From: Candidatus Magasanikiibacteriota bacterium | Lineage (GTDB): Bacteria > Patescibacteriota > Patescibacteriia > Magasanikbacterales > UBA922 | Length of the DNA: 64,000 nucleotides | Assembly: GCA_041665025.1 (NCBI GenBank) | Contig: JBAYJP010000001.1 | Location: 110,555-174,554, forward strand | Reading direction: 5' to 3' | Part shown: positions 2,527 through 20,096 of the stretch, piece by piece | Numbering within the stretch: position 1 is the first letter of the stretch | Layout: every line of letters begins with the position of its first letter | Program-made: the position numbers and the translations under genes | Notes under the pieces: generated by a model | The model's input: only the letters and a program-made list of their open reading frames with translations | What the model was told of the DNA's origin: nothing | The model's database searches: none

Positions 2527-5166
2527 ATGATATATGATAGATGGTACATGCCCGTCTGTCATCTATCATTTATCATCCTTATGCTCCCCTTTTTAACATT
2601 ACAGCTGTTCACTCAATCAGGGACTTTAATCGGAACGACAACCTCCAATGATGCAATGATTCTCAATCTGACTATTACCGGTTCAGCTATTTTGTTTGTG
2701 GTGAGCATTATTTTTATCATTCGTGCATTACTCACCCGAAAGATCTTTAAAATTAAACATGCATTTGACCGCGTCGTGCTGCAAATTCTCGTACCAAAAG
2801 AAAAAAAATCTGAAGGTGCGGGAAATTCGAACCAAGAAGAGCGGCTTGAACAAGTCAAAGAAGAAATTGGAATTACTGAAACGCTTTTTGCGTCAATTGC
2901 AGGCTTGCGCGCCGAACGTGGTATACGCAGATGGTTTCGCGGACGCAATGATCACGCCGCATTTGAAATTGTGGTGCATAATGGCCTTATTAATTTTTAT
3001 GTTGCCATTCCTCATCGTCTGAAAGCTTTTGTCGAACAACAAATCAACGCGCAATATCCATACGCCCATATTGAAGAAATTGTCGACTATAATATTTTTA
3101 CGCCAAAAAGTTCAATTACCAGTGCCTACCTCGTGGATAAAGAAGTTCATGTATTTCCTTTTAAGACCTATAAAAAAATGGATTCTGACCCGCTGTCCGG
3201 TGTTCTTAATGTGTTGGCCCGCGTCCAAGAACATAATAGTTCTGCTGCCATACAATTTGTCGTGCGCTCCGCACACAGAAAATGGCGTAGGAAAGGCGTA
3301 CGCATTGTACGCGAAGTGAAAAAAGGAGAAAGGTTTGAACGCGTGGCAAAACGTGGCTGGTTCCACCATATATTTCGCTATGCCTCAAAAGGACTTGGGG
3401 AACAATTTCGTGGAAAATCGAAAGATCCTTCGATGCAACAAAAAGAGCATTATCAGCTCTCGGCTATGGAAGAAGAAATGCTCAAAGGCATAGAAGAAAA
3501 ACTGTCCAAAGGAGGACTTGATGTTACCCTGCGATTACTCAGCTCATCGGACAGCGCCGATATTGCACGCATGAATCTCGACAACATGATTAATGGGTTT
3601 AGCCAATATAACTTGTATCGCTATGGCAATTCGTTTTCTGCAATCATTCCTCGCAATCAGCGTGTAGTTATACAAGATTTTATTTATCGCTCATTTCATG
3701 AAAACAGACACATGGTCCTAAATACCGAAGAAATGGCGGGGTTATGGCATCTTCCTCTCCATTCAACTGAAGCACCAAATATTAAATGGCTCTTAGCGCG
3801 CAAAGCACCTCCGCCGTCAAATTTACCGCGTGAAGGGCTTCTACTCGGACATATTCCGTATCGTGGACAAGATTATGAAGTGCATATGAAGGATGCGGAC
3901 AGACGACGCCACTTATATGTGATGGGAAAATCTGGCGGTGGAAAATCAGTATTTATCCAAGGCCTTGCCGTACAAGATATACAAGCAGGACATGGGGTTT
4001 GTGTAGTAGACCCGCATGGTGATTTTGCTGAATATGTGCTCCAGCACGTTCCCAAAGAACGCGCAGATGATGTTATTATTTTTGACCCATCTGACACGAG
4101 CCGTCCGGTCGGGCTCAATATGCTTGAAGCAAAAACTGAAGACCAAAAAGATTATGCCGTGCAAGAAATGATTGGGATTTTCTACAAATTGTTCCCGCCA
4201 GAGATGATCGGCCCGATGTTTGAGCATCAAATGCGCAATGTCATGCTTACCCTCATGGCAGATATTGAAAACCCCGGAACAATTATTGATATTCCACGCA
4301 TGTTTACTGATGATGATTATGTAAAAATTTATTTGAAAAAATTAAAAGATCCTGTGGTGCGAGCGTTTTGGGAAAAAGAAATGGCAAAGACATCAGATTT
4401 TCATAAATCAGAAATGTTGGGTTATCTTATTTCCAAAGTAGGCCGATTTGTCGAAAATGACATGATGCGCAATATCATGGGACAACAGCATTCGGGATTT
4501 GACTTCCGCGATGTCATGGATAAACAAAAAATTCTTATTGTAAATCTTGCAAAAGGAAAAACAGGAGAAGTGAACGCCAAGCTCCTTGGTCTTATTGTGG
4601 TGGCAAAACTCCAAATGGCTGCTATGGGACGCGCAGAATTACCCGAGGATCAGCGTAAAGATTTTTATCTCTATATTGATGAGTTCCAAAACTTTATTAC
4701 CGATTCAATCGCGACCATTTTGTCTGAAGCGCGCAAATACCGCCTGGATCTCATTATCGCGCATCAATACTTAGGACAATTGACTGATGACAAAGGAAAA
4801 CCTGAAATTCGTGATGCAGTACTTGGAAATGCAGGCACTATGTGCGTATTTCGCATAGGTCCAGAGGATTCAGAAATTTTTGCAAAAGAATTTGCACCAA
4901 CATTTGGCGCATATGATCTTATGAACGTTGAAAAATTTACGTGCAACACCAAACTTTTGGTTGACAACGAAGCGTTGAAGCCTTTCAACATGAATGTATA
5001 CCCGCCTGAACGTGGAAATGTCCAGCTTGGCGAAGCAATCAAACAGCTTTCACGCCTTAAGTTCGGCCGCGACCGCAGTATTGTCGAAGCTGAAATTCTT
5101 GAACGTACAAAACTTGATCAGGGAGTTAGCGAGAGCAAAGATGATATGATTGAAGCGAGTCTTTAA
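2527..5166 (+). CDS. TraG/VirD4/TraD-like type IV coupling protein family ATPase (T4CP-like; HerA/DUF87-related)
   Basis: Two N-terminal TM helices. Walker A VMGKSGGGKS and VVDPHGDF, Walker B YLYIDEFQNF, and a Q-rich IIAHQYLGQL motif are typical of T4CP/TraG proteins. Confidence 0.6.
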   Translation: MIYDRWYMPVCHLSFIILMLPFLTLQLFTQSGTLIGTTTSNDAMILNLTITGSAILFVVSIIFIIRALLTRKIFKIKHAFDRVVLQILVPKEKKSEGAGNSNQEERLEQVKEEIGITETLFASIAGLRAERGIRRWFRGRNDHAAFEIVVHNGLINFYVAIPHRLKAFVEQQINAQYPYAHIEEIVDYNIFTPKSSITSAYLVDKEVHVFPFKTYKKMDSDPLSGVLNVLARVQEHNSSAAIQFVVRSAHRKWRRKGVRIVREVKKGERFERVAKRGWFHHIFRYASKGLGEQFRGKSKDPSMQQKEHYQLSAMEEEMLKGIEEKLSKGGLDVTLRLLSSSDSADIARMNLDNMINGFSQYNLYRYGNSFSAIIPRNQRVVIQDFIYRSFHENRHMVLNTEEMAGLWHLPLHSTEAPNIKWLLARKAPPPSNLPREGLLLGHIPYRGQDYEVHMKDADRRRHLYVMGKSGGGKSVFIQGLAVQDIQAGHGVCVVDPHGDFAEYVLQHVPKERADDVIIFDPSDTSRPVGLNMLEAKTEDQKDYAVQEMIGIFYKLFPPEMIGPMFEHQMRNVMLTLMADIENPGTIIDIPRMFTDDDYVKIYLKKLKDPVVRAFWEKEMAKTSDFHKSEMLGYLISKVGRFVENDMMRNIMGQQHSGFDFRDVMDKQKILIVNLAKGKTGEVNAKLLGLIVVAKLQMAAMGRAELPEDQRKDFYLYIDEFQNFITDSIATILSEARKYRLDLIIAHQYLGQLTDDKGKPEIRDAVLGNAGTMCVFRIGPEDSEIFAKEFAPTFGAYDLMNVEKFTCNTKLLVDNEALKPFNMNVYPPERGNVQLGEAIKQLSRLKFGRDRSIVEAEILERTKLDQGVSESKDDMIEASL

Positions 5167-5220
5167 ACCAGCTTTCTAGGCTATTTTGGCTATCTAAGTC
5201 TTCTGAGCACAAACAACGAT

Positions 5221-5574
5221 ATGGGAAATTACAAAAAACTTGATATATATCAACGTTCATTTCGTGCATCTATAGCCATATATAAATTGTCACTAGAATT
5301 GCCGAAATATTTACAATATGACATTGCCGATGACCTGAGAAGAGCTGCCCGATCCATTCCTTCAAATATCGCCGAAGGATTTGGACGAAACAAGTCAGAT
5401 AAGGATAAAATAAATTTCTTAAGAACATCTTTGGGGTCAAATGATGAAGTATTATTTAATCTTGAATTTATAAAAGAATTAAAATTGATTGATGATGAAC
5501 GACATAATAAAGCAACTATCGAATATAATAAAATTGGTTCTGGCATTATCCACTTAATAGAGGCAATAAATTAA
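5221..5574 (+). CDS. four-helix-bundle protein (TIGR02436; '23S rRNA intervening sequence protein' family)
   Basis: 117 aa. The start YQRSFRASIAIYKLSLELPK...AEGFGR matches the family signature. Confidence 0.75.
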   Translation: MGNYKKLDIYQRSFRASIAIYKLSLELPKYLQYDIADDLRRAARSIPSNIAEGFGRNKSDKDKINFLRTSLGSNDEVLFNLEFIKELKLIDDERHNKATIEYNKIGSGIIHLIEAIN

Positions 5575-5728
5575 AATACAAAAGCTGAGAAAGCCTAGAT
5601 AGCTTAGAAAACTAAGATGGCTAAAAATTATCCCCCTCTCGTCCACACTTCATCCCCTTTCATCGCCTGACACTGTCGGCGTTTTTTGTTATAATTTCAA
5701 AACTAAACACCAATAACAAACACCCCCT

Positions 5729-6442
5729 ATGAACCAGATATCTAATATTCTCACGGACAGAATAAATAATTTTTTAGATGAAATACATGTACCCACATCT
5801 GCTGTGGCACAAGAGTCGGTTCATACTTCTCCCCTCTCTATTTCTATAGAGCCAACTGAAGTTCCACAAGCTTCCACACAAACACCTGATTTCAAACAGA
5901 CTATTACACAATCGCTGTACCGCATAAAAGATGAGATAGAAAAACTTCTAAGAACTCTGCAACAAAGTGAAGCACCCATTGAATCAACTTCCACGCATAA
6001 ACCATTTGTATTCTCTAGTCAACAAACACCAGCAATCAATACATTCACTGCATCGGATGAAAAGATAATTGAGGGCGTCTTTAATGGACAAAAAATGATT
6101 GGCCCGGATGGGACTGAATACGCGGTCCCTCCCAATTACGCAAGCAAATCAAAGCTCGTTGAGGGTGATATGATGAAACTCATCATAACCAGAGAAGGTA
6201 GATTTTTATTCAAACAAATCGGCCCTATTGTCCGCAAACGCGTGATAGGAAAACTTATGTTTGATACCGCACAACAACTATGGTCTGTCGTGCTTGAAGA
6301 TAGACATTACAAAATTTTAACCGCTTCAGCTACCTTTTATAAGGGCAACCCTGGCGACCAGGTCGTAATGTTCATCCCCGAGGACGGACAAAGTGAGTGG
6401 GGCGCGGTTGAGAATATTATCCATTCTTCTTATAGTATATAA
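5729..6442 (+). CDS. hypothetical protein
   Basis: 237-aa ORF followed by a strong hairpin terminator. No recognisable domain. Confidence 0.5.
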   Translation: MNQISNILTDRINNFLDEIHVPTSAVAQESVHTSPLSISIEPTEVPQASTQTPDFKQTITQSLYRIKDEIEKLLRTLQQSEAPIESTSTHKPFVFSSQQTPAINTFTASDEKIIEGVFNGQKMIGPDGTEYAVPPNYASKSKLVEGDMMKLIITREGRFLFKQIGPIVRKRVIGKLMFDTAQQLWSVVLEDRHYKILTASATFYKGNPGDQVVMFIPEDGQSEWGAVENIIHSSYSI

Positions 6443-6465
6443 ATCTATACATATTTTGTCTTTAA

Positions 6466-6497
6466 AACCCTGTACCGTCCTGGTACAGGGTTATTTT
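6466..6497 (+). terminator. rho-independent terminator (aaccctgtaccgtcctggtacagggtt + T-run)
   Basis: Perfect GC-containing hairpin followed by TTATTTTTGG, immediately after the 5729..6442 ORF. Confidence 0.6.
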
Positions 6498-6562
6498 TGG
6501 GATGATATGGTCAAATAAAAGCACCCCGTTATTCGGGATGCTTTAATGTGCTAAAGTGAAAA

Positions 6563-6817
6563 CTAACTCAAATGTGTTGAAACCAATTTTGTCATTTCAA
6601 ACATGTTTACTTCTTTTTTACCAAAGATAGGAAGTAAAAGATCATCTGCAAAGATATTTCGTTTGTTTGCTGGATTCTGTAAATTATTCTTTTTGATGTA
6701 TTCCCAAAGTTTCTTAACAACCTGTGAACGTGGCATTGGGCCCTTTCCGACGACTGCTTCTAAATCAGCAGTTAATGTCATCGGTTTGAGCAAAGCTGGA
6801 TTTGCTTTACGTGGCAT
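6563..6817 (-). CDS. SWIB/MDM2 domain protein
   Basis: 84 aa. LSADLAAVVGKGPMPRSQVVKKLWEYIKKNNLQNPANKRNI matches the SWIB domain consensus. It has its own hairpin terminator at about 6518-6545. Confidence 0.75.
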   Translation of the reverse strand: MPRKANPALLKPMTLTADLEAVVGKGPMPRSQVVKKLWEYIKKNNLQNPANKRNIFADDLLLPIFGKKEVNMFEMTKLVSTHLS

Positions 6818-7032
6818 ATACGTTAATGTTAAAAATTATTGCCCTTATTAATTATCCACAGTATACCATAGAGGGGCAAAACGTGCAATGGCGTGGTCAA
6901 GTAAGAGGGGTTTACCAGAAGCTACAATTGGGATATACTATCTACGCGAAAACGACCAATTTCTAGATACCAATTTCCAAACTTTCTTAATTTTTTTAAA
7001 AATTCGAAATTCAAAATTTAAACTTCTTCTTT

Positions 7033-8613
7033 ATGGCACTTTATCTTGATTACCGCCCACAGCAATTTGATGACATTATAGGGCAGGCACATATCATTAC
7101 TACGCTAAAAAACCAGGTTTTACGCCAAAAAACAGCTCATGCGTACCTTTTTTCTGGTCCTCGAGGCGTTGGCAAAACTACGACTGCCCGCATTTTGGCT
7201 AAAGCGCTGAATTGTGAAAAAAGAAAAGAAAACTCGTACGAACCGTGCAATGAATGTGAATCGTGCAAAGAGATCAGCGAGACGCGATCTATAGACGTCA
7301 TCGAGATAGATGCCGCGAGTCATACAGGTGTGGATAATGTGCGGGAAAATATTATTGAAAATGCTCAATTTAAACCTACCAAATCAAAAAATAAAATATT
7401 TATTATAGACGAAGTACACATGCTCTCTACCGCGTCTTTTAATGCACTTCTAAAAACTCTTGAGGAACCACCCGCATATGTTAGCTTTATTCTCGCAACC
7501 ACTGATTCACACAAACTTCCCGCGACTATTATCTCCCGGTGTCAGCGATTCAACTATTCCAAAGTCCCCGACGATGACATGAAGTCATATATCAAATCAA
7601 TTGCAAAAAAAGAAGGAATAAAAATTGATGATGAGGTAATTGCGCGCATCACACGCAAAAGCGAAGGATGCGCGCGTGATGCAGTTGGGTTGCTCGATCA
7701 AATTATGGCTTCGGGCGAAAAACATATTACCGAGGATGTAGCTTCTCTTGTCTTGCCTACCACGCATATTGAACTACAGCTTGATTTTGCTGAACAGCTT
7801 ATTTTGAAGCAAAAAGAACAAGGTCTTACCACATTGCGAACTTTGGCAAGTGATGGCGTGAGCTTGCCTCATTTTGCCGAAGATCTTATTGAGCTCCTGC
7901 GCGTCATTATGATTGGATGCATTGATATAAAACTATCAGAAAAAGAACTAGACCTCCCCAAAGACGCGTTTAAACGAGTATTAGAACTTACCAAGTCCAT
8001 AAACTCTGTCCAAATGGTACGCCTTATTGATCTCGCATTGAAACGGACAAATGAAATTCGCAATTCCCCTCTTCCCCAACTCCCATTGGAAATGCTTGTG
8101 ATTGAGTGGTGTATGAGTGATGAAGACAACGACCAGGGAACGACGACCAGGGAACAAAAAACCCCAATAAAATCATCGGATACAAAAACGAGTACAACTC
8201 AAAAGACAATGCTGCAAGATAATACCACTTCATCAATAACACAACCAGAAAATCAAACTGATGTTGCAATAGTTAAAAATAACGATACTCAGATCAATTC
8301 CGAACAAGCAAAAAAGGCATGGGAGTCATGCGTTGATGAAATATCCAAGCAAATGCCTTCTTTTGGCTTTATCCTCAAAATGTCTGAATTTGAGTGTGTC
8401 GAAGGGAACTTAATAAAAATTCTTGCGAATTATACATTTCACAAAGATAAAATCACTGAAAAACCAATTCGCGAAAAAATTGAATCGTTGCTCAGCGCCA
8501 TTCTCAAAACACCCGTGCGAATAGAAGTAAATGTCAAAGACGGAGCAATACAGCAACAAGAAACACAGGAGTTGCAAGAACTTGCGACGATGCTGGGTGG
8601 TGAAGTTGTTTAA
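7033..8613 (+). CDS. dnaX: DNA polymerase III subunit gamma/tau
   Basis: N-terminal FDDIIGQ...AHAYLFSGPRGVGKTTTARILAKALNCE with a Cys4 zinc module, a DEVHML Walker B and SRCQRF sensor. Confidence 0.9.
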   Translation: MALYLDYRPQQFDDIIGQAHIITTLKNQVLRQKTAHAYLFSGPRGVGKTTTARILAKALNCEKRKENSYEPCNECESCKEISETRSIDVIEIDAASHTGVDNVRENIIENAQFKPTKSKNKIFIIDEVHMLSTASFNALLKTLEEPPAYVSFILATTDSHKLPATIISRCQRFNYSKVPDDDMKSYIKSIAKKEGIKIDDEVIARITRKSEGCARDAVGLLDQIMASGEKHITEDVASLVLPTTHIELQLDFAEQLILKQKEQGLTTLRTLASDGVSLPHFAEDLIELLRVIMIGCIDIKLSEKELDLPKDAFKRVLELTKSINSVQMVRLIDLALKRTNEIRNSPLPQLPLEMLVIEWCMSDEDNDQGTTTREQKTPIKSSDTKTSTTQKTMLQDNTTSSITQPENQTDVAIVKNNDTQINSEQAKKAWESCVDEISKQMPSFGFILKMSEFECVEGNLIKILANYTFHKDKITEKPIREKIESLLSAILKTPVRIEVNVKDGAIQQQETQELQELATMLGGEVV

Positions 8614-8631
8614 ATAATCTCATCGCGTATA

Positions 8632-8745
8632 CAACTCAAAAGTCAAATCTCAAAACTCAAATTTGGAACTCAAAACCTGTAAACTTTTAAGTTTGAAGTT
8701 TATATTTTGACTTTTGACATTTGAATTTTGAATTATTTGATGGTG
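8632..8745. repeat. palindromic intergenic repeat, family D (tcaaaagtcaaaact ... agttttgacttttga words)
   Basis: Word-like inverted repeats. Related copies occur at 54125-54240 and 55150-55238. Confidence 0.6.
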
Positions 8746-8757
8746 AATTAGAAATTT

Positions 8758-9744
8758 ATGAAATATAATTTTTTAATTTCATTAGCATTAGCTTTGTCTC
8801 TTACACCTATATCTCTGCATGCAGCCAATCTGCCTGTTCCTTTTTCTTCCCAAGCGCCACAAGGCAGATGGGTTGAACCCTGGAAAAATGCATGTGAAGA
8901 AGCTTCTACCATGCTCGTTGATCTATTTTATTATGGATACACAAGTAAACAAGTAGACGCCGATGGCGCAACAAAACTCATTTCTCTGTTAGTAAAGCTC
9001 GAAAATAACCATTTTGGGTTTAACAAAGATACCAATGCGGTACAAATCACAGAACTTATCAATTTATACCTACCGTGGGAAGCGTATATTGTAGAAAATC
9101 CAACTCTAGAACAACTCAAAGCAGAAATTGATAATGGACACCCTATATTATTTCCAGTACATGGACGCGATTTGCGTAATCCTCATTACAATACAGATCA
9201 AATTGATTACCATGTGTTTGTGATTAGCGGGTATGATGATGAGAAAAAAGAATTCATTGCACAAGAAGTAGCAACACAGTTTGGTATTGACTTTCGCTAC
9301 TCATATGATACAATCATGACCGCAATGCACGACTTTTTACCCAGAGATAAAACATATCTAGGAAGAAAGGTTGCCATATTTACCCGCAAAGAACTTATTG
9401 ATTCTGGAGCAACTGATGGAGACAAAGATGGACTCACAAAACGTGATGAAATTGAACTAGGGACAATACTGTATTATGCAGATAGCGACGGAGATGGATT
9501 TAATGACGGGCTGGAAGTTGCCAACGGCTATTCCCCTACAGTAAATGAAACAAAACTGGGCAATAATGCACTTATCAAAACAAACGGAAGTCCTGATGTA
9601 TTTCTCTTAGACAACGGAAAAACACAAAAAATTGTATCAGAACAAGTATTACAAAATCATGGATGGAAGTGGCAGGATGTGAAGACAATAAGTAAGAAAT
9701 TTTTTGAGACGAAATTGATTTTGGGAACGGATATTACAGAATAA
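8758..9744 (+). CDS. secreted peptidase C39-like (YvpB/BtrH-like) domain protein with C-terminal Asp-rich Ca-binding-like repeats
   Basis: Signal peptide. VPFSSQAPQGRW...NACEEASTMLVDLFYYGY fits the C39_2 motif (Q...C...YYG). DGDKDG and DSDGDGFNDG repeats are thrombospondin-type-3-like. Confidence 0.55.
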   Translation: MKYNFLISLALALSLTPISLHAANLPVPFSSQAPQGRWVEPWKNACEEASTMLVDLFYYGYTSKQVDADGATKLISLLVKLENNHFGFNKDTNAVQITELINLYLPWEAYIVENPTLEQLKAEIDNGHPILFPVHGRDLRNPHYNTDQIDYHVFVISGYDDEKKEFIAQEVATQFGIDFRYSYDTIMTAMHDFLPRDKTYLGRKVAIFTRKELIDSGATDGDKDGLTKRDEIELGTILYYADSDGDGFNDGLEVANGYSPTVNETKLGNNALIKTNGSPDVFLLDNGKTQKIVSEQVLQNHGWKWQDVKTISKKFFETKLILGTDITE

Positions 9745-9751
9745 AAACCAT

Positions 9752-9822
9752 TCGGAGATCGTCTAATGGTAGGACAGCAGACTCTGAATCTGCTTATCCT
9801 GGTTCGAATCCAGGCCTCCGAG
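9752..9822 (+). tRNA. tRNA-Gln (anticodon CUG)
   Basis: Hand-folded cloverleaf: acceptor TCGGAGA/CCTCCGA with U1-A72, D-arm GTCT..GGAC, anticodon stem GCAGA/TCTGC with loop CTCTGAA, T-arm CCTGG-TTCGAAT-CCAGG, discriminator G. CCA is not encoded. Confidence 0.8.
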
Positions 9823-9985
9823 CTACTAAATGTAGTAGACTCTTCCGCCAGAGGCGGACCAGCCTTGGGCTGGGAATCCATTTATCTTGCCTGCCCGCCG
9901 AAATGGAGGGGTTCAAATCCAAGTCCTCGAGCAAATCTGCTTATCCTGCCTGTCCGCCTTTGGCGGAGTGAGAATCCAGGCCTCC
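9823..9985 (+). repeat. degenerate echoes of the tRNA-Gln 3' half (tRNA-derived fragments; possible integration scar)
   Basis: ctgcttatcctg and aatccaggcctccgagc recur at 9937-9985, with weaker copies gggctgggaatcca and ggaggggttcaaatccaagtcctcgagc. The region is GC-richer than its surroundings. Confidence 0.5.
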
Positions 9986-9991
9986 GAGCAA

Positions 9992-10015
9992 AAATCCCCT
10001 CTTCGGGGATTTTTT
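9992..10015. terminator. hairpin aaaatcccctcttcggggatttt (copy 1 of a direct repeat); bidirectional terminator
   Basis: Perfect stem-loop with A-run and T-run flanks between convergent genes. An identical 24-mer recurs at 12722. Confidence 0.65.
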
Positions 10016-10035
10016 ATGTATTATTCTTTTAATAA

Positions 10036-10806
10036 CTAGTCTTTCATTTCCCAATTTTTAAACATCACTAATTCAAGCTTTTTAAAAATTAATAATTCAC
10101 AGATTAACCCTATGGCTGCAATAGTGATGATTCCAGTCAGGACTTGATCTAAATCAAAAGACCACTGCGACATCCAAATATATTTGCCTAGTCCGCCTAC
10201 CCCCGTCACTAACATCTCCGCTCCAATCAGAGATCTCCAACTAGAACCAAAACCCATCCTTAAGCCAATGACTATATTAGGTAAAGCACCCGGAATGACA
10301 ACTTTAAATAATACTCCCATTTTACTCATACCTAAATTCTTAGCTGCTAAAATCCAATGGGGATTAATGTTCTGAATTCCAGTAATCATATTAAGCACTA
10401 TCTTCAAAAAACTAGAAATAAAAACCAATATCCAAACCGACCATTGTGTAAAACCTGTCATAATAATAATCATTGGTAACCAAGCCAATGATGGAATAGG
10501 ATAAAAAAAAGAAATAAGAGGCAATATCATCGATTGTCTAACCTTACTAGTGCCAACAAACAATCCTACTAAAAAAGCAACAATAATAGATAGCAAATAT
10601 GGCGGCAAACAATTCAATAAACTTTTACTTACAATCAGATAGAGAGTACCCTCTTTTAGCAATCTAAAAAAAACAGAAATCACTGCTAAAGGAGAGGGAA
10701 GCAAGTAGGATGGTACCAGTTGCAAATAAGTTATGACACTCCAAGCAGTGAACAGCAAGAGAAATGGAACTAAGGGATAAAATATTTTTTTAATTAATAC
10801 CGTCAT
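10036..10806 (-). CDS. ABC transporter permease (NitT/TauT-SsuC-like family)
   Basis: Six TMs and a binding-protein-dependent permease signature region. The likely start is MTVLIKK; the upstream extension in the ORF track overlaps the SBP gene. Confidence 0.8.
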   Translation of the reverse strand: MTVLIKKIFYPLVPFLLLFTAWSVITYLQLVPSYLLPSPLAVISVFFRLLKEGTLYLIVSKSLLNCLPPYLLSIIVAFLVGLFVGTSKVRQSMILPLISFFYPIPSLAWLPMIIIMTGFTQWSVWILVFISSFLKIVLNMITGIQNINPHWILAAKNLGMSKMGVLFKVVIPGALPNIVIGLRMGFGSSWRSLIGAEMLVTGVGGLGKYIWMSQWSFDLDQVLTGIITIAAIGLICELLIFKKLELVMFKNWEMKD

Positions 10807-11830
10807 ATATCTCTCCTTGGGCATTAAGTAATAAATCCGTAAATTGACCGTCAAAAATATTTTTTTCTGTTAATTTATTTTTTATTGTCTCAGTTTCATA
10901 GCTAATATTAGCTACATCAGAAAACATCGTGGGATTAACCCAAGAGTAAAACTTAATATCACCCCTCTCAATTTTCTCTTGTACGACATCCGGTGTGTAA
11001 TCTATCGCTCCCAAAGTTTCTTTTTTAACAAACTCAGAGAAAGCCTGGCTGGTACCCTGGGGGTTTTCTTTGATATATTTCTGTGTTTCAATTAAAGCAA
11101 GAAGAAATTTACGAATAATAACAGAATTTTTGTTTAGATAATCTTCTTGACTTGAAAAAACCACCATACCGGATGGGTTTTCTGCATAACCTTTCTCAAA
11201 CCATCCAGGAAGTGCCATTACTCTATCCCCATACTGACTATAATCAGAGTCAATGGGTATTATGGCATCAACTGATTTCTTTTCTAACAAAGCAATAGCT
11301 TCGTATGTTTCATCTATGCCAGCAAATTCGATTTTGTTATAATCAAGACCTTCTTTCCTAAGTGCATATTTTAGAGCTAAACCGCGGCCACTATTTCCTC
11401 TTACAGAGACAACTTTCCCTATAATATCTTCCAATTTTTTGATATTACTATCACCACGTACATAAACTCCCATTTTAGAAATTGAAGATGGCGAAAAAGC
11501 TTTAACGGGTACTCCTTTGTCAATAAAACTCAATAAGGTAGTAATACCAATACTAGCAACATCTACTTGGCCAACCGACAAAGCTGTCATAGATTCCGTA
11601 CCTCCCAAGTCAATCAATTTTACATCGAGTCCTTGCTTCAAAAAAAATCCTTTTTCTTGAGCAACGACAATAGGTAGACTGGATATAAGCTGAATATTAT
11701 AGGCAACAGAAATATTATTTATTTTTTCTACTTCATACTTTTTCTCTTTATTCGACACAAAATTCCATGCAAGAAGTATAATTAGACCTATTAAAATAGC
11801 CGAAACTAAAATACAATATATTTTTTTCAT
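10790..11830 (-). CDS. ABC transporter substrate-binding protein (NMT1/SsuA-like)
   Basis: N-terminal TM/signal peptide, periplasmic-binding fold, operonic with the ATPase and permease. Confidence 0.7.
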   Translation of the reverse strand: MKKIYCILVSAILIGLIILLAWNFVSNKEKKYEVEKINNISVAYNIQLISSLPIVVAQEKGFFLKQGLDVKLIDLGGTESMTALSVGQVDVASIGITTLLSFIDKGVPVKAFSPSSISKMGVYVRGDSNIKKLEDIIGKVVSVRGNSGRGLALKYALRKEGLDYNKIEFAGIDETYEAIALLEKKSVDAIIPIDSDYSQYGDRVMALPGWFEKGYAENPSGMVVFSSQEDYLNKNSVIIRKFLLALIETQKYIKENPQGTSQAFSEFVKKETLGAIDYTPDVVQEKIERGDIKFYSWVNPTMFSDVANISYETETIKNKLTEKNIFDGQFTDLLLNAQGEIYDGIN

Positions 11831-11833
11831 ATA

Positions 11834-12628
11834 CTACTTTGTTAAATTAAAATTATACAAGTATGATTTATTAAAGATTTTAAATTCTGAATCAATTTCG
11901 GCTTCGATCTCTTTCATCAGGCGTATAAAAGTTGGGTCATCTACTTGTCGGGGGCGAGCTAAGGATAATTCATACTTTTTCTTGATCACAAAAGGCCGCG
12001 AACTGACTACATAAATAGTATCTGCTAAACAGAGAGCTTCATGAACACTATGGGTTACAAACAAGATTGTTTTATGGTTTCTATCCCAGATTTCCAGCAA
12101 ATTATTCCGTAAATGCCGCCGGGTTTGCGAATCTAGAGCTGAAAATGGTTCATCCATTAACAAAATATCTGGATCCACAACCAGTGACCTGGCAAAAGCC
12201 ACGCGCTGTTTCATGCCGCCTGACAGCTTATATATCGGCCAATCTTTAAACTCCCCTAGTCCAACCATTTCTAAATAATACAAAGCTTTTTTTCTTTTTT
12301 CCTCTTTACTTAGTTCTGAATTAGACAAACCAAATAAAACATTACCAAGAACCGTTTTCCACGGAAAAAGCATGTGGTCTTGAAAAACCATGAGGCGTTC
12401 CGAACTAATAGATTCAACTTTTTTTCCATATGTAAAAATATCACCGGCAGTAGGTGATAAAAAACCAGCAATTAAATACAATAAAACGGTCTTTCCACAA
12501 CCAGACGGTCCTACAATACATACAAATTCTCCATCTCTGACCTTCATATCCACGCTATCTAGCGCACAAAAATTACCGCCAAAGCTTTTTTTAACCCCTA
12601 ATAATTCTAAAGCAGAACTTGATGACAT
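11834..12628 (-). CDS. ABC transporter ATP-binding protein (SsuB/TauB-like)
   Basis: Walker A GPSGCGKT, signature LSGGMKQRVAFARSL, Walker B LLMDEPFSALD. The start is probably MSSSSALELLG. Confidence 0.85.
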   Translation of the reverse strand: MSSSSALELLGVKKSFGGNFCALDSVDMKVRDGEFVCIVGPSGCGKTVLLYLIAGFLSPTAGDIFTYGKKVESISSERLMVFQDHMLFPWKTVLGNVLFGLSNSELSKEEKRKKALYYLEMVGLGEFKDWPIYKLSGGMKQRVAFARSLVVDPDILLMDEPFSALDSQTRRHLRNNLLEIWDRNHKTILFVTHSVHEALCLADTIYVVSSRPFVIKKKYELSLARPRQVDDPTFIRLMKEIEAEIDSEFKIFNKSYLYNFNLTK

Positions 12629-12721
12629 ATCTTCACACAAAAATTCATGATAAATAGTCCACATTGTTATAGCGCAAAAAACCTTTTTTGTCAACTAATG
12701 AAAGGCACTTTTTTAGTACAC

Positions 12722-12750
12722 AAAATCCCCTCTTCGGGGATTTTAATTTT
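12722..12750. terminator. hairpin aaaatcccctcttcggggatttt (copy 2, identical to 9992-10015)
   Basis: Same 24-mer as downstream of the tRNA. It sits between the ABC ATPase start side and the methyltransferase gene end. Confidence 0.6.
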
Positions 12751-13441
12751 TATGTACCACACTTACTATATTTCTCCCTCCTCTAGAATCAGAAAGATAC
12801 GGTTCTTGTTCAAAATATTGTTCATCGATAACAAATCCAGATTCTTCAAACAATTGTTTTAATTCGTCTTCGGTAAAAGAATGATAATATCTATCTCCCA
12901 AAATATTTCCTTGTGGATCACGCCACGGCACAATAAAATCATTGTCCCCTATTTTCGTATATTTTCCTTTTTCGACTTTTTTATTTGCCCAATCGCTTCC
13001 TAAATTCCAATTTTTCATAATAAGTCGCCCATCTTTTTTCAAAACGCGCTTCATTTCACCTAATGCCTTTAGGCGTGTTTCTTTGTCAGGCAAATGGTGA
13101 AATGCGGCAATACAATAGATGATATCAAATGTATTATTCTGAAAAGGAAATGTTTCTGCCATATTTCCCTCAACAAACACCACCTCTGACCACTTTTTAC
13201 GCGCAATAGCGAGTAGTTCTCCACTCAAGTCCATTCCTGTATACGTCACTTGCATTTTATCAAACAGATGGTATAATTTGCCATTCCCGCACCCCAGGTC
13301 TAACATGTTGTCTCCGTCTTTGGTATACTTCACGAGTTCCTTTTCACTTTCTCTCACATATTTTCGCGTATCAGAAAAAAAGGAAGCAATTTTGTTATAA
13401 ATGTCCTTTGTCTGTCTAATTGTATCTTGGGGACTATCCAT
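12743..13441 (-). CDS. class I SAM-dependent methyltransferase
   Basis: Motif I LDLGCGNGKLY with a conserved acidic post-I/post-II arrangement. 232 aa. Confidence 0.8.
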   Translation of the reverse strand: MDSPQDTIRQTKDIYNKIASFFSDTRKYVRESEKELVKYTKDGDNMLDLGCGNGKLYHLFDKMQVTYTGMDLSGELLAIARKKWSEVVFVEGNMAETFPFQNNTFDIIYCIAAFHHLPDKETRLKALGEMKRVLKKDGRLIMKNWNLGSDWANKKVEKGKYTKIGDNDFIVPWRDPQGNILGDRYYHSFTEDELKQLFEESGFVIDEQYFEQEPYLSDSRGGRNIVSVVHKN

Positions 13442-13452
13442 ATTGACAAATT

Positions 13453-13515
13453 AATAGAACACGAATGAAACAAATTCGTCCAAATTAGTTTAATTCGTTA
13501 AATTCGCGTTCTATA
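13453..13515. repeat. palindromic intergenic repeat, family A (aatagaacacg...gaacgaattcgtt...cgtgttctat)
   Basis: Outer inverted repeat aatagaacacg/cgcgttctat. Related copies at 20097, 21477 and 23292, with a partial copy at 49741. Confidence 0.6.
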
Positions 13516-13520
13516 AACCT

Positions 13521-15236
13521 ATGCAAGAGTTAGAAAATATTGTACTACAAATCATTGAAAAGCATCCTAAAACCAAGGATGATTTTAATGAAGCAAAACG
13601 ACAGATTACATCAAAACTCCAGATAAACTCTCCGTCAAACCGAAATCTTATCTCAGCTTATCAAAATTTATTAAAAAAGAAAAGAGTTGTGAAAGACGTG
13701 GGGTTAGAATTTCTCATGCGCAAGGCCGAAATGCGTACTCTTTCTGGTGTAGCCATCATTACGTCCCTAGTCAAGCCATATGCCTGCCCCGGAGACTGCA
13801 TATATTGCCCTACAGAGGTCAAAATGCCCAAAAGCTATATCGCAACCGAACCAGCCGCCGCACGCGCTCTAGCGCTCAAATTTGACCCCTACGAACAAAT
13901 GCGCAGGCGTATTGAGGTATTGGAACAAAACAACCACCCAACAGACAAGATTGAGTTTATTATCAAAGGCGGAACGTGGAATGCGTATCCCCTTTTATAC
14001 CAATACTGGTTCGTACTAAGGTCGTTCCAAGCATGTAACGATTTGTCACGCAAAAATAAAAGATTAAAAGATTATAAAATTAAAAGATTACCGGACAATC
14101 ACAATCTTTCAATCTTTCAATCTTTCAATCTTGAAGATTTGCAAAATCTTTTAAACACCGAACAACAATATAACGATAAAAAAGCACGTCATAAGATTAT
14201 AGGTGTGACCCTCGAAACCCGTCCAGATGCAATCTCTCCAAAAACAATTTATCACATGCGTCAACAAGGATGCACACGCATTGAACTAGGACTTCAAGCA
14301 CCTGATGATAATATTTTAAAACTTATTAAACGCGGACATACGGTTCAACAATTCAAAGATGCGATGTATTTACTAAGGCAAGCTGGATTTAAAGTTGATT
14401 TGCACTTTATGCCCGCATTGCCAGGATCATCTGCAAAACATGATGTCGAAATGTACAAACAATTATTTTCTGATCCAGGATTGAAGCCTGACATGATAAA
14501 AATATACCCATGCACCGTAATAAAAAATACGGAATTATACACATGGCTACAAAATAAAAAATATAAACCATACGACCAAAAAGATCTTTTTGAAAGTATT
14601 ATTCAAATGAAAATAAACACTCCTCGTTATTGCCGTATTTCTCGACTTATTCGCGATATTCCCGCCAATGAAATTGAGGGCGGAAATATCATTACGAACC
14701 TGCGCGAAGCATTGCAAAGTGAAATGAAGAAGCGAGGATTAAAATGTGAATGTTTGAGGTGCAGAGAAGTGGGACATGTGAGCACTTTAGCACGACAGCA
14801 CTTTAGCACTTTAGCACCGAAACCATTTATTGACGTATACGAAACAAATGGAGGAACGGAGTATTTTTTGAGTTTTGAAGATTCAAAGAGACATGTTGTC
14901 TTTGCCTTTCTACGTCTAAGAATACCAAACCAAAGCCCCTCCATTTTTAAGGGAGGGGTTGGGGGTGGGTTGCTCGATCATCTACCTGAAATGAAAAACT
15001 CTGCATTCATTCGTGAGCTTCATACGTATGGCCAACTTCTTGAACTTGGAGAAAAAAATAAATCTGCAAGTCAACACAAAGGCCTTGGCAAAAAACTTGT
15101 GCAAAAAGCAGAAAAAATCGCAAAGAAAAATGGATATACAAAACTTGCAGTGATTTCAGGAGTAGGCGTCCGTGGCTACTACAGAAAATTAGGATACAAA
15201 AAACGAGGAACATACATGGTTAAAAATATAAAATAA
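13521..15236 (+). CDS. elp3: Elp3-like tRNA uridine(34) acetyltransferase (radical SAM + GNAT)
   Basis: Radical SAM cluster motif YACPGDCIYCP, conserved FDPYEQ...IEFIIKGGTWNAYP, and a C-terminal GNAT with HKGLGKKLV. It carries two in-frame low-complexity insertions (14055-14150; 14775-14815). Confidence 0.85.
   Translation: MQELENIVLQIIEKHPKTKDDFNEAKRQITSKLQINSPSNRNLISAYQNLLKKKRVVKDVGLEFLMRKAEMRTLSGVAIITSLVKPYACPGDCIYCPTEVKMPKSYIATEPAAARALALKFDPYEQMRRRIEVLEQNNHPTDKIEFIIKGGTWNAYPLLYQYWFVLRSFQACNDLSRKNKRLKDYKIKRLPDNHNLSIFQSFNLEDLQNLLNTEQQYNDKKARHKIIGVTLETRPDAISPKTIYHMRQQGCTRIELGLQAPDDNILKLIKRGHTVQQFKDAMYLLRQAGFKVDLHFMPALPGSSAKHDVEMYKQLFSDPGLKPDMIKIYPCTVIKNTELYTWLQNKKYKPYDQKDLFESIIQMKINTPRYCRISRLIRDIPANEIEGGNIITNLREALQSEMKKRGLKCECLRCREVGHVSTLARQHFSTLAPKPFIDVYETNGGTEYFLSFEDSKRHVVFAFLRLRIPNQSPSIFKGGVGGGLLDHLPEMKNSAFIRELHTYGQLLELGEKNKSASQHKGLGKKLVQKAEKIAKKNGYTKLAVISGVGVRGYYRKLGYKKRGTYMVKNIK
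14055..14150 (+). repeat. family E repeat (aagattaaaagatt / caatctttcaatctttc) inserted in-frame in elp3
   Basis: It encodes KRLKDYKIKRLPDNHNLSIFQSFNLED. The same word repeat is intergenic at 30287-30420 and in-frame in tsaE and the GT2 at 38285-38335. Confidence 0.6.
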
Positions 15237-15386
15237 CTCCCCTTCTCAGGGAGTTTTAAATTATTCTAATTAACCTAATTGTTCTAATTATTCTAAATAA
15301 TGACTAGGCTTTGTATAATATTTTGAAATTGAGATTTGTTTTAGGTTAATTAGTATAATTAGAATAATTAGTATAATTAAATTCCA

Positions 15387-16565
15387 CTACATTTCCCCGC
15401 CCACCTTCGTCTTTATTTCTTCCTTCAGTTCTTCAACAAACTCATCAATCCTCTCTTTTGAGATCTGTTGCATCACAACCACATGAGCAAGATCACCCTG
15501 CACCGCGAGCTGATGGCGATGAATGAGTGCTTCAGAAGGCCGTTCAAACACAACAGTCGTAGACCACTTATTCAAAAAGCATTTGGGATAATGTATTGCA
15601 ACCAAACTTTCATATAAATATTGAGCGCGTGCGAGGCAGTCGTACACATCCTTTTTAAAACCTTCCACGCCCCGAGACATAAACGCATACCAAGAAATAA
15701 GCGCAGTATGTCCCCCACGTGAACCACTAATGGTACTATCGTGACTTCCGATATATTCTATTTCATGCGAAATTTTGTCTATGTTCTTTTTGCGCGCAAG
15801 CACTATACCATATGGTATCGGAGAACCTATAAATTTATGTCCGGAAATAGCAACACTATCAATTGACTTAGAAAAATTTATAACTGGAGCGTCGGGCTCA
15901 GAAATAAATGGCAAAATTAAACCAGATAGAGCGCCATCGCAATGAATATAATGCTCTTCAATGCCATTTCGTTTCAATACCTCGAGTATTTCGTCAAGAT
16001 TATCAATCGCTCCTTTTACCGTCGTGCCTATGTTGATTACAACAACAGCAGGGCGTTTGCCATGCTGTTGTAAAATCTTTTCAAATTTTGAGACGTTCAT
16101 CTCCCCATTTTCACAAGAAGGTACGATACTATAATCCAATTGCAAAATATGTGCGCTTTTCTTCAATGAATAATGTGCATCTTCAGAAAAATATAATCGC
16201 GCCTTGGGATATAATTCACGAGCCACAAACAATCCATGCATATTGCCCTCCGTACCGCACGATGCGGTATACCCCCAAAATTCTTCGCGGGGTAATTTGT
16301 ATACATCGGCAAGCCAGTACAAAGCCTCGCGTTCAAATTCACGCGCATGCATCTGGTAATTGCATTCATCAAATGGATCGCCTAAATTATTTAAATTATA
16401 TTTAAATAAAGGAAATATAGGCGAATAGTCAAAATCAAAATTGCACGGAAAACCCATGTGCAGTATCGATTTAGCATGTATTTCTTCTTCAAATTTACTA
16501 AGTCGTTCATTTATCTCTTCTGGTGTCATACAAAATTTAAGAAAATATTGCATCAAGTAAAGCAA
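15387..16565 (-). CDS. hdc: PLP-dependent histidine decarboxylase (group II decarboxylase, Gram-negative HDC type)
   Basis: Near-collinear similarity to Morganella/Klebsiella HDC: WGYTASCGTEGNMHG, NIGTTVKGAIDNL, and the PLP lysine SGHKFIGSPIPYGIVLARK. Confidence 0.8.
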   Translation of the reverse strand: MLYLMQYFLKFCMTPEEINERLSKFEEEIHAKSILHMGFPCNFDFDYSPIFPLFKYNLNNLGDPFDECNYQMHAREFEREALYWLADVYKLPREEFWGYTASCGTEGNMHGLFVARELYPKARLYFSEDAHYSLKKSAHILQLDYSIVPSCENGEMNVSKFEKILQQHGKRPAVVVINIGTTVKGAIDNLDEILEVLKRNGIEEHYIHCDGALSGLILPFISEPDAPVINFSKSIDSVAISGHKFIGSPIPYGIVLARKKNIDKISHEIEYIGSHDSTISGSRGGHTALISWYAFMSRGVEGFKKDVYDCLARAQYLYESLVAIHYPKCFLNKWSTTVVFERPSEALIHRHQLAVQGDLAHVVVMQQISKERIDEFVEELKEEIKTKVGGEM

Positions 16566-16747
16566 AAAATAGAAATACTGTCAACACCGCTTATAGACCT
16601 TGCGAGGAAAAAGAAAGATTTATGACTCCCACAATCATTAATAACAGAGCATTAATTTTTAATACAATATTTTTTCTGTCTATTTCTTCTTCTATAATAT
16701 GCGGAAAAAATAAGGAATATGTATGATAAAAAGTATAGAATAATAGA

Positions 16748-18706
16748 TTAACTTTTTTCTAATATCCAGGTGTCAGCAGACTGTTTTCCTTCTCGCTCAA
16801 ATCTTAATATATAATCTCGAGCTGTCCCCGCAGACACTTTTGATCTGGTAAGTCTTCTCAGAAAAAAACACACACGGCTAAGCGCATTTGTCGTATCCGT
16901 ATCCTCAAATCCTTGAAACGAAATGGGCGCGGCTTTTCCAATGCTACTTCTTTCTAATACGGATACGACATGAGCACGAAGTTCTCGATTATTCAAAATT
17001 TCATGAGCACTTATATACTTTTTCTGCATTTCTCTTTTTACATACTCAAGTGCTTCTTCTCTACCGCTGTTAACAAGTTCCCCAATAAATTGTCTACTGA
17101 GTAGTGACGAGATGCGGCCATCAACTTTCAATTCTTGGGTGAGATGATGTCCGACTCTTTGTAAAAAACTGTTAAGCATAACAACACGGTAACCTTCTAT
17201 AGAAAGAGTCACTTTATTTCGGGAATGGACAGGCGCATGGCCAATTTGTTCCCAAATTTTTCTACATAGTTCAGAATCTCTATACAACTCCTCTAATGTA
17301 AGATCTTTTTTCCTAGCTTCATCTTCAATAAATTTTTCAACATGAGCCTCACCGTCTTGCGTAGCTAAAAGACGTATGAATGTAAGCGCTCGTTTTCTAG
17401 ATACTGAACCTCGGGGTAATGTATACCTTTGTTCTATTTCTTTTGCCATGGTATCTAATAATTGACGAGCTTGGGCAGTAGTAGTAGCTCCCTCAATCTT
17501 GATAGGAGAAAGGTCTTCAAAATGCGAAACGATCTTTACACCGGACAATGCTTGTGCAAGGGGTTGACGCATCTCAGGATGCTCCATCAATGTTTCTAAA
17601 CTAATTCTCGTTTTCCCCAAAAATGAATACCAATCCACCCACTCCCCATAGACATGATTGGGATTAGATGGCCAATTAGGATGTTTTTTACTTTCTTGTC
17701 TATATCTTTCTGACCCCATAATAGGAGGGTCACAGCTCCGCACCTCTGCTTGCAACTCCATATAGGTAAGAAATGATGCTTTTTCCTTTTGCCTCTCCTT
17801 TTTCAAAAAATCATACCAATTTGTCCATTCATCTTTATATGTCTCAAATGGTTCCGATGGCCATTGCACATGATTTTTCCGTTCTACTTCATAACTAGAA
17901 CTACTAGTAACCCCGCAGCCCAATACGTCGTGTTGGAGATCAGTGTACGACAAATAGCGAGGCCCTTTTGTCTCCAAAAAATATTTTAGGACAGTCTTCC
18001 ACTCATCAACATTAGAAATCCACTCTATAGGTGTAGCACTGGTTTGCAAAAACTGAACCATGTGCTCTTTGTCCATACCCAAGATATGTGCATTCCACTG
18101 TTCCCTCGTTATATCATGCAAAACAAAGGTGCTATTTCCCTCTTCATTGTTGACTAAAACAATAATATGTTCTTCATCAACGACATATGCTCTATATAGT
18201 TCGTTTCTTCTCATCTTATGTCTCCTTCTAAATTCCTCCTCTGCTTGCGGAGAGGTCTCAAGGATATGATAATCTAAATCTAAACTCTCAAGTACCTGCT
18301 CAAGATATTGATCTCTTGGTATAATTTGCAGTTCCCGTGTTCTTTCAGCGGCACCCGTAATAATTCGTGGATATGCGTTTGGAGGCAAAATAACTTTATC
18401 AATATATTCTACGGGTTTACTCAATGCCAGTTCATGGGCAGCATCTATTAATACACTATCCACGTAGCCTTGCCCTTCCTTATCATATTTATTCATATCA
18501 AAATCCAAATTCATTGTCTCGGCTGCTTCGCCTGGTTCAAGATATGACTGAAAAACAAGAGCTTCCCACTCATGTTTGAGACGTTCAAACCAATATTCTT
18601 CGGGGTCATTAATTTTTTCGATTCTTTGTATTTCTCTTTGCTCTTCTGTTTTTCTTCTATAATTTTCCCTGGTTGAGTTAACTCCAGATGTTACAGACTC
18701 GTTCAT
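16748..18706 (-). CDS. large hypothetical protein with two tandem Trp-rich repeats (WPSxP..Y.EW..WYDFLxK)
   Basis: 652 aa. The repeats are ...HVQWPSEPFETYKDEWTNWYDFLKKE and ...HPNWPSNPNHVYGEWVDWYSFLGK. No confident family assignment. Confidence 0.6.
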   Translation of the reverse strand: MNESVTSGVNSTRENYRRKTEEQREIQRIEKINDPEEYWFERLKHEWEALVFQSYLEPGEAAETMNLDFDMNKYDKEGQGYVDSVLIDAAHELALSKPVEYIDKVILPPNAYPRIITGAAERTRELQIIPRDQYLEQVLESLDLDYHILETSPQAEEEFRRRHKMRRNELYRAYVVDEEHIIVLVNNEEGNSTFVLHDITREQWNAHILGMDKEHMVQFLQTSATPIEWISNVDEWKTVLKYFLETKGPRYLSYTDLQHDVLGCGVTSSSSYEVERKNHVQWPSEPFETYKDEWTNWYDFLKKERQKEKASFLTYMELQAEVRSCDPPIMGSERYRQESKKHPNWPSNPNHVYGEWVDWYSFLGKTRISLETLMEHPEMRQPLAQALSGVKIVSHFEDLSPIKIEGATTTAQARQLLDTMAKEIEQRYTLPRGSVSRKRALTFIRLLATQDGEAHVEKFIEDEARKKDLTLEELYRDSELCRKIWEQIGHAPVHSRNKVTLSIEGYRVVMLNSFLQRVGHHLTQELKVDGRISSLLSRQFIGELVNSGREEALEYVKREMQKKYISAHEILNNRELRAHVVSVLERSSIGKAAPISFQGFEDTDTTNALSRVCFFLRRLTRSKVSAGTARDYILRFEREGKQSADTWILEKS

Positions 18707-20075: not shown

Positions 20076-20096
20076 TTTTTGAATCTTTGGAATTTA

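Follow-up and report, generated by a model that had tools for sequence, protein, structure and literature searches.

Copies of the tRNA-Gln(CUG) 3' half and a hairpin direct repeat around an ABC importer operon in a Candidatus Magasanikiibacteriota genome

We analysed a 64-kb stretch of a Candidatus Magasanikiibacteriota genome (assembly GCA_041665025.1, contig JBAYJP010000001.1, positions 110,555 to 174,554; hereafter the window), in which a tRNA-Gln(CUG) gene is followed by copies of its own 3' half (echoes) and then by a three-gene ATP-binding cassette (ABC) importer operon that lies between two copies of a hairpin direct repeat. The source is a groundwater member of the Patescibacteria with a small genome; in ENA the window falls within a 282-kb metagenome contig (ERZ27249449 k141_705746), and its proteins carry Magasanikbacteria names at NCBI. 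We put at about one half the probability that this locus records two separate duplication events at a recombination hotspot, neither of them with a recombinase in cis, the ABC operon being an insertion with long target duplication. The locus would then combine tRNA-end scars with a module flanked by a long duplicated target, both of kinds that are already known. It is not a classical tRNA-integrated island and is fairly ordinary; the novel cassette-capture mechanism that a first-pass annotation had suggested for the ABC operon is neither needed nor excluded, and the interpretation offered there is partly supported.

The tRNA-Gln(CUG) gene occupies 9752-9823 on the plus strand (ARAGORN; Rfam RF00005, 58.2 bits) and is the sole tRNA that ARAGORN and Rfam place in the echo region; it does not encode CCA, and the functional tRNA-Gln has no intron. 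Two segments of this 72-nt gene recur exactly downstream: the 18-mer GAATCCAGGCCTCCGAGC, which runs from the T loop to the base after the discriminator, is found at 9806-9823 and 9972-9989, and the 15-mer AATCTGCTTATCCTG, from A37 to the T stem, at 9787-9801 and 9934-9948. The downstream pair makes up echo 3 (9934-9989, plus strand; from repeat search and alignment), which repeats the tRNA 3' half, beginning at A37 and ending one base past the discriminator; its two exact blocks, of 15 nt and 18 nt, correspond to sequence positions 36-50 and 55-72 of the gene. Between them, at the T stem/loop, GTTC is swapped for a 23-nt segment (CCTGTCCGCCTTTGGCGGAGTGA, 9949-9971) that holds the hairpin TCCGCC-TTT-GGCGGA. 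The alignment of echo 3 to the tRNA scores 53.5 (17.2 +/- 3.7 for shuffled sequences), and echo 3 adjoins a terminator hairpin, as the tRNA itself does in relatives.

Echo 2 (9874-9932, plus strand; from a repeat-family search and alignments to the tRNA and to echo 3) is a degenerate copy of the 3' half, composed of GAATCCATTTATCTTG, a 20-nt hairpin insert (9890-9909) and GGTTCAAATCCAAGTCCTCGAGC. Its score against the tRNA is 34 (shuffles 20.7 +/- 4.0, best shuffle 40); it aligns well with echo 3, with the same architecture, a homologous hairpin at the same place and diverged flanks. The T stem of echo 2 reads CTTG/CAAG in place of the resident CCTG/CAGG, a 'compensatory' change that we find suggestive but do not accept as proof of a foreign tRNA allele, since by a rough estimate, rather than a computed test, it has a chance of ~15% (two paired-position transitions among ~9 differences). 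The remaining segment next to the tRNA, 9824-9873 on the plus strand, consists, as read from the sequence, of two GC hairpins, HP1 (TCCGCC-AGA-GGCGGA, 9844-9858) and HP2 (CCAGCC-TTG-GGCTGG, 9859-9873), plus GAATCC. More than one parse fits this segment, which may be what is left of the 5' portion of a tRNA copy that has decayed; a parse as tRNA 5' part with an insert at 35/36 is kept as tentative, as the aligner favours another path. The first-pass annotation had reported at least three copies of the tRNA 3' half, one of them at 9968-9985. The 18-mer and 15-mer matches bear out that such copies are real; the one in question lies 4-5 nt further on (9972-9989), and two copies (echoes 2 and 3) stand, the third (9824-9873, made of hairpins) being doubtful.

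All echoes lie within 166 nt of the tRNA, between it and the ABC operon, with none past the operon and none elsewhere in the window (17-mer with at most 3 mismatches; exact matches of at least 13 nt). Just two CCGCC..GGCGG hairpins occur in the 64-kb window, both inside the echo array, and there is no terminator-like site on the plus strand between the tRNA and 9990. The array thus consists of tandem units between the tRNA and a terminator, and every unit closes with the 3'-terminal segment of the tRNA. It folds better than shuffled sequences (z = -3.8), and it matches no Rfam family besides tRNA, so no RtT and no intron was detected.

A similar form is known from Escherichia coli. In K-12, as we verified, the last 19 nt of tyrV recur exactly three times downstream of the gene; these copies start with AATCC in the T loop and have a spacing of 178 bp; the RttR RNA is annotated in the first tyrV unit of these tyrT/tyrV trailer repeats (PMC3318445). 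Because of these three 3'-end copies at tyrV, we regard a local, tyrT-like origin of the echoes as a serious rival: the echoes would be products of unequal crossing-over or slippage at the site itself, without foreign DNA, would be kept in the precursor, perhaps as a small RNA, and the two terminators would be an unrelated local copy. The window also has tandem units before a terminator, each ending in the segment of the tRNA from the T loop to the 3' end; these units are head to tail, echoes 2 and 3 share an internal hairpin, and the trailer folds well. The period, however, is ~56 nt here and 178 nt in E. coli, the copies in the window are degenerate and hairpin-interrupted, and we found neither sequence similarity nor an Rfam match to RtT or any other family, nor a match to the small open reading frame (ORF). 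The good fold is mostly due to the GC palindromes. In addition, the hairpin sits inside the copied tRNA segment, which is not what simple contiguous tandem duplication produces, and the array is not conserved, as the echoes of relatives differ from it in number, side and sequence. As an account of the locus we consider this origin unlikely.

The second duplication concerns the hairpin that ends the echo array. The 23-mer AAAATCCCCTCTTCGGGGATTTT is found at 9991-10013 and 12722-12744, and even at a tolerance of 3 mismatches the 64 kb contain no other match (100 shuffles gave none). The identity extends to 9989-10020 (copy 1, with a stem-loop at 9990-10014 and A/T runs on both sides) against 12719-12756 (copy 2, stem-loop 12722-12744), with 32 identical positions and two indels (5 nt and 1 nt), as obtained from the 23-mer search, a terminator scan and extended alignment, with no strand assigned. 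The identical hairpin that had been noted on both flanks of the operon is therefore an exact pair; its exact part is 23 nt, and the full repeat is 32-38 nt long. Copy 1 stands 22 nt past the permease stop, in the interval where the tRNA trailer and the permease gene converge, and copy 2 overlaps the stop codon of a methyltransferase gene (12743-12745, in the hairpin tail). Both have 9-10-bp stems with 4 GC pairs and T runs and stand at gene 3' ends, which is the form of intrinsic terminators; copy 1 is so placed that it is predicted to terminate both the tRNA/echo transcript (plus strand) and the ABC operon (minus strand), and copy 2 is the predicted terminator of the methyltransferase gene. 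Since the identity does not stop at the hairpin but takes in the stop codon and a further 7 nt of methyltransferase coding sequence, the repeat appears to have arisen by copying rather than by convergence.

Our scan of the whole window found 37 terminator-like hairpins with diverse sequences, among which copies 1 and 2 are the only identical pair; their closest motif relatives, of the AAATCC..GGATTT type (15235-15255 and 58838-58863), are clearly different. The 23-mer is found neither in 1.67 Mb of fetched loci, beyond the source's own copies, nor in viral contigs. We rejected a dispersed hairpin repeat of the repetitive extragenic palindrome or miniature inverted-repeat transposable element type, as both the 23-mer and the CCGCC..GGCGG hairpin have two copies in 64 kb. 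A transposon with a short target-site duplication was rejected as well, and so was an integron gene cassette: there is no integrase, the flanking repeat is a simple terminator hairpin, and the module has its own promoter-like site.

Between the repeat copies, three genes on the minus strand encode the permease (BPD_transp_1; 10036-10806; gene call, Pfam 4.5e-22), an NMT1/THI5-like substrate-binding protein (10790-11830; Pfam 8.9e-24) and a NitT/TauT-type ABC ATPase (11834-12628; Pfam ABC_tran 7.5e-31). Having ATPase, NMT1-type binding protein and BPD_transp_1 permease in one operon, the module is predicted from Pfam to be a NitT/TauT-type ABC importer. The module is flanked by the gene for a class I S-adenosylmethionine (SAM)-dependent methyltransferase (12743-13441, minus strand; Pfam Methyltransf_11 7.8e-22), and the Pfam matches confirm the earlier assignments of all these genes. 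The ATPase start given here is that of the 264-aa version used by NCBI (alternatives are ATG at 12664 and TTG at 12694). A promoter-like site, TTGACA-17 nt-TATAAC (12668-12696, minus strand; read from the sequence), lies just downstream of repeat copy 2 on that strand, ahead of the ATPase gene, and is probably the promoter of the ABC operon; it is missed by the promoter listing because the last base of its second hexamer is C. Rfam searches over the window and the ABC loci of five relatives returned tRNAs only, so no riboswitch, RtT or intron.

The structure of the locus is not an assembly artefact, because the same arrangement is found in the independent Logan assembly SRR6484324: its 4.3-kb contig L004 covers the methyltransferase gene, hairpin copy 2, the ABC operon, hairpin copy 1 and most of the echoes, and the junction sequences that we inspected are identical to those of the window. 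Both assemblies that hold the species thus carry the ABC insert. Another contig of the Logan assembly, L002, ends exactly after U35 of the tRNA (window 9786), and L004 has an end at the first base of HP1 (window 9844); this contig break in the echo region may reflect strain heterogeneity or an assembly bubble.

Operons with the same gene order (ATPase, NMT1 binding protein, permease) are found in five relatives, each in a different neighbourhood (e.g. after recR in L104). The best non-self homologues of the ATPase are ~63% identical and come from Patescibacteria and DPANN. The binding protein has a single non-self match, at 28% identity, in a word-indexed search whose word filter limits sensitivity, and by direct comparison it is 32-34% identical to its counterparts in the operons of relatives; judging by these values, it evolves fast. 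When compared with the operon of the fairly close relative L104, the ATPase is 63.6%, the permease 51.6% and the binding protein 34% identical, and of the core proteins DnaB is 73.5% and RecR 58.6% identical. The divergence of the ABC genes thus seems comparable to that of core genes, and we see no sign of recent foreign origin. Their composition is near the window mean, with the binding protein alone deviating (G+C content at third codon positions, GC3, z = -2.9), and a foreign origin of the operon by composition is not convincing.

With this native-like composition, one could suppose that nothing was inserted, i.e. that the operon is native and its two terminators became identical via gene conversion or reuse of a favoured hairpin. 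Several intergenic palindrome families are reused in the genome, and the AAATCC..GGATTT terminators mentioned above are similar without being identical. The identity of the two copies, however, runs outside the hairpin into coding sequence, every other terminator in 64 kb is different, and the location of the operon differs in each relative examined. We think that a native operon is a rather improbable explanation.

The neighbourhood of the tRNA has a fixed side and a variable side. In the window, the tRNA-Gln(CUG) gene starts 8 nt after the stop codon of a C39-like peptidase gene, and the order dnaX-C39-tRNA-Gln is kept in many Patescibacteria; the longer upstream order (cysS ... TraG-like, SWIB, dnaX, C39, tRNA-Gln) is kept in Magasanikbacteria and beyond. 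On the 3' side of tRNA-Gln, where in relatives a terminator directly follows, gene content differs in each relative examined (greA/folD, riboflavin genes, radical SAM/PBP, folD and others). Since the upstream order is conserved and the downstream genes are variable, tRNA-Gln marks a synteny breakpoint. The TraG-like gene, four genes upstream of tRNA-Gln (window ~2580-5170; L001 3824-6409), encodes an 861-aa TraG/VirD4-like coupling protein (DUF87/TrwB); it is syntenic in the relatives L085 and L089 and, for this reason, looks like a core gene of this lineage, not like a component of a conjugative element.

An islet is found at the same tRNA in one relative, L048, where 5.5 kb of DNA separate tRNA-Gln(CUG) from an echo of the tRNA 3' end (12670-18332). 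The GC content of this segment is 0.358, as compared with 0.48 and 0.43 in its flanks, and its genes encode a RadC-Dcm methylase, a HaeII-type endonuclease, Vsr, an M15 peptidase and a RelA/SpoT-like protein; the six ORFs tested in and just beyond the islet include no integrase. Its echo begins in the T loop, with 22 nt exact and ~17 more partly conserved, and is preceded by a GC hairpin. Terminal echoes of at least 12 nt beside tRNA-Gln are also found in L012, L028, L034 and L085. Overall, adjacent echoes of at least 12 nt accompany eight of 43 tRNAs in the Patescibacteria loci, but two of 47 in other loci; by eye, all such Patescibacteria fragments abut or contain a GC-rich hairpin.

These observations bear on the view, proposed in the first-pass annotation, that the locus is a decayed island, with the ABC operon as cargo integrated site-specifically at tRNA-Gln by a since-lost integrase, and with the echoes and the hairpin repeats as attachment (att) scars. 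In classical tRNA integration, the element lies between a complete tRNA and a partial copy of it (PMC9897764), and partial duplications of tRNA genes left by integrative elements form attL/attR at tRNA 3' halves, according to work cited there (Williams 2002, Reiter 1989, cited in PMC9897764). Echoes that run from the anticodon or T loop to the 3' end are a classical att signature (PMC9897764), the tRNA-Gln end is a synteny breakpoint and an insertion hotspot, at which the low-GC islet of L048 lies between tRNA and echo, again with no integrase among the ORFs tested, and the ABC operon is non-syntenic in the five relatives, with the 23-mer restricted to two copies in 64 kb; to this extent the proposal of integration at the tRNA is supported, and the finding that would have refuted it, a ubiquitous hairpin together with a syntenic operon, was not made in the window and these relatives. 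The operon, however, is not bracketed by echoes: it lies outside the echo-bounded segment and there is no distal echo, and the echoes, themselves hairpin-interrupted, enclose essentially no cargo. The repeat that flanks it is not tRNA-derived but consists of a terminator and the 3' end of the methyltransferase gene.

Searches for mobility genes and attP sites point in the same direction. We found no integrase, resolvase or transposase domain (Phage_integrase etc.) among the ORFs examined in the 64-kb window (ORFs of at least 150 aa plus called genes), in agreement with the earlier remark that no integrase is present, the check for a nearby integrase being limited to the window. The 20-mer at the tRNA 3' end has no match in viral contigs, so no attP-bearing element was seen there. 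A metagenome scan with GAATCCAGGCCTCCGAGC, in a collection that does not include the source genome, gave 23 matches and no attP; these are chance matches in unrelated, mostly high-GC contigs, except for one tRNA-Gln(UUG) from another organism. Together with the native-like composition and divergence of the ABC genes, this makes a decayed tRNA-integrated islet very improbable. HP1 was considered separately as a mobile element and rejected, despite its identity to three hairpins of L012 described below: the 17-mer TTCCGCCAGAGGCGGAC has 10 matches in viral contigs, near the chance expectation, those in low-GC contigs representing a generic intergenic hairpin unlinked to tRNAs and those in high-GC contigs looking like chance.

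The tRNA fragments might instead be scars of break repair, after double-strand breaks made in the anticodon loop by homing endonucleases or in the course of group I intron gain and loss. At position 35/36, introns of this kind are common in tRNA genes of Patescibacteria and enriched in this phylum (PMC13011429), to which the window belongs, and the scars have their breakpoints concentrated at positions 35-37 of the anticodon loop: echo 3 starts at A37, one possible parse sets the HP1/HP2 insert after U35 and ends it in G, and the Logan contig L002 ends at U35. In L102, moreover, a GIY-YIG nuclease ORF (interval 5549-5935; Pfam 3e-13) lies between a tRNA-Asn 5' pseudo-half and the intact tRNA-Asn. 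However, no intron or ribozyme was matched by Rfam in the window and the ABC loci, the inserts here are 20-30-nt hairpins, of which even 30 nt is too small for a group I intron, the functional tRNA-Gln is intron-less, and tRNA-Gln is not among the reported intron hosts (PMC13011429). The parse of 9824-9873 is ambiguous, and crossover in the anticodon loop is also typical of classical integrases. We hold break repair to be quite unlikely as the origin of the echoes.

For the ABC module, the closest known system is insertion with long target duplication, in which direct repeats of >30 bp, without mobility genes, overlap gene 3' ends (Furuta et al. 2010, PMC2853133); it was described for restriction-modification genes, mainly in naturally competent bacteria (PMC2853133). 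The module resembles this class in its size (a 2.7-kb insert, with <20 kb as the criterion), its repeat of >30 bp, the absence of mobility genes and the overlap with the 3' end of a neighbour, and the repeat is otherwise unique in the available sequence. It differs in its cargo, an ABC importer in place of a restriction-modification system, and in its repeat, which is a terminator hairpin with two indels; moreover, the class is defined by an empty-site allele, and no collection searched here contained a sufficiently close genome.

We propose the following history for the locus. The tRNA 3' half, from the anticodon loop to the 3' end, would have been duplicated at least twice. As the tRNA of relatives directly precedes a terminator, echo 3 with its hairpin is most likely the original end of the tRNA, displaced by the duplication of the 3' half, and echo 2 would derive from at least one earlier or nested event. 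The echoes would now form a 166-nt GC-rich, non-functional 3' trailer, with each copy interrupted in its T arm by a GC hairpin, that is probably co-transcribed with the tRNA and then removed in 3' processing. After the echo duplications, a self-contained 2.7-kb unit (promoter, ATPase, binding protein and permease) would have been placed at what was then the convergent junction of the tRNA and the methyltransferase gene, duplicating ~32-38 bp of target, i.e. a bidirectional terminator hairpin and the last bases of the methyltransferase gene. Intrinsic termination would now fall to the two hairpin copies, copy 1 ending the transcripts of the tRNA trailer and the ABC operon and copy 2 that of the methyltransferase gene.

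Several points weigh against this history. The closest relative, as judged by the adjacent C39 protein, has a homologue that is 60% identical, and we saw no empty site, which leaves the direction of events to inference. Adjacent echoes adjoin with next to no 'cargo' in between, and the hairpin insert that echoes 2 and 3 have in common occupies one position in both, a pattern not accounted for by simple successive insertions. The ABC genes have no clear foreign composition, apart from the GC3 deviation of the binding protein noted above; the copy number of the 23-mer is known for 64 kb of the genome only; and the 32-38-bp repeat contains two indels.

Other arrays of tRNA fragments were observed in relatives. 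The 15-mer of HP1 is identical to three hairpins in the tRNA-Gln and tRNA-Pro fragment arrays of L012, a distant Patescibacteria metagenome-assembled genome, in which GC hairpins are interleaved with the tRNA fragments: there are two units of tRNA-Gln 5' fragments upstream of tRNA-Gln (11617-11965) and at least three 3'-end echoes of tRNA-Pro downstream of tRNA-Pro (19430-19742; the two intervals are listed together as minus strand). A GC-rich palindrome lies in or next to each tRNA fragment. In L085 (9012-9193), a 12-nt 5' echo and a 97-nt structured insert stand ahead of tRNA-Gln, and in L028 a structured element of ~70 nt, with apparently compensatory changes, is found on both sides of tRNA-Gln along with 5' and 3' echoes. 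In L129 (8132-8520), a perfect 20-nt palindrome precedes a 28-nt internal echo of tRNA-Val, CCTGCCTGCCGGCAGGCAGG is found in a tRNA-Val pseudo-copy, and there is a 12-nt 5' echo of tRNA-Gln(UUG). The tRNA-Asn pseudo-half of L102 carries the palindrome TCCGCCAGCTGGCGGA in its D loop.

Some of these fragments are close to homologous ABC operons. In L102, the operon (interval 5970-8643) directly follows the intact tRNA-Asn and is flanked by a perfect 16-nt inverted repeat (GGAACGATTTCAGAAC / GTTCTGAAATCGTTCC). Overall, the operon is within 1 kb of a tRNA with adjacent fragments in three of six genomes (the window, L102 and L129, but not L103, L104 and L130), for which a rough binomial estimate, on a very small sample, gives p of about 0.015. 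Past the permease stop, L102 (8628-8653) and L130 (about 7685-7710) have a conserved 26-nt element in common, GTTCTRAAATCGTTCCACCCAGCGAG, and L103 and L129 share another conserved 5' leader and a GGCTGAGCA motif; neither the element nor this leader and motif match an Rfam family.

Reuse of intergenic hairpin families is evident in this genome. The window contains three families of long AT-rich palindromes between genes, which measure 46-94 nt and are made up of short sub-repeats: the first at 13453-13514, 20091-20214, 21470-21561 and 23288-23379, the second at 8625-8766, 54097-54233 and 55157-55242, and the third at 47212-47280, 52808-52886 and 58167-58236. Their arms are 77-89% complementary between copies (largest pairs), and they may be bidirectional terminators or protein-binding sites. 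Just past recR, a GC-rich segment of ~190 nt (58866-59060), in a genome of 38% GC, has no long ORF and is flanked by terminator-like hairpins at 58838-58863 and 59095-59118. It has no Rfam match, 58866-59125 folds at z = -2.5 relative to shuffles, and we consider 58866-59060 a candidate for an unannotated small RNA.

A broader idea is that Patescibacteria gain and shuffle small modules, independently of integrases, on structured targets such as tRNA halves and terminator hairpins, with duplication of 20-50 bp. The hairpin-interrupted tRNA pseudo-copies would then be the scars, and palindromes of the YCCGCC..GGCGGR or CCTGCC type may be part of the mechanism. We regard this idea as quite improbable.

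In the window, the GC-hairpin-interrupted tRNA fragments are scars with no shown function, and such fragments merit a systematic survey. If the history of insertion with long target duplication is true, an episymbiont with a very small genome and few classical mobile elements would still relocate an accessory nutrient importer, and it would do so by duplication of a structured target beside a tRNA gene, without a recombinase of its own. The ABC operon would then be a case of insertion with long target duplication outside restriction-modification systems, and tRNA-Gln(CUG) would be a recurrent insertion site in Patescibacteria.

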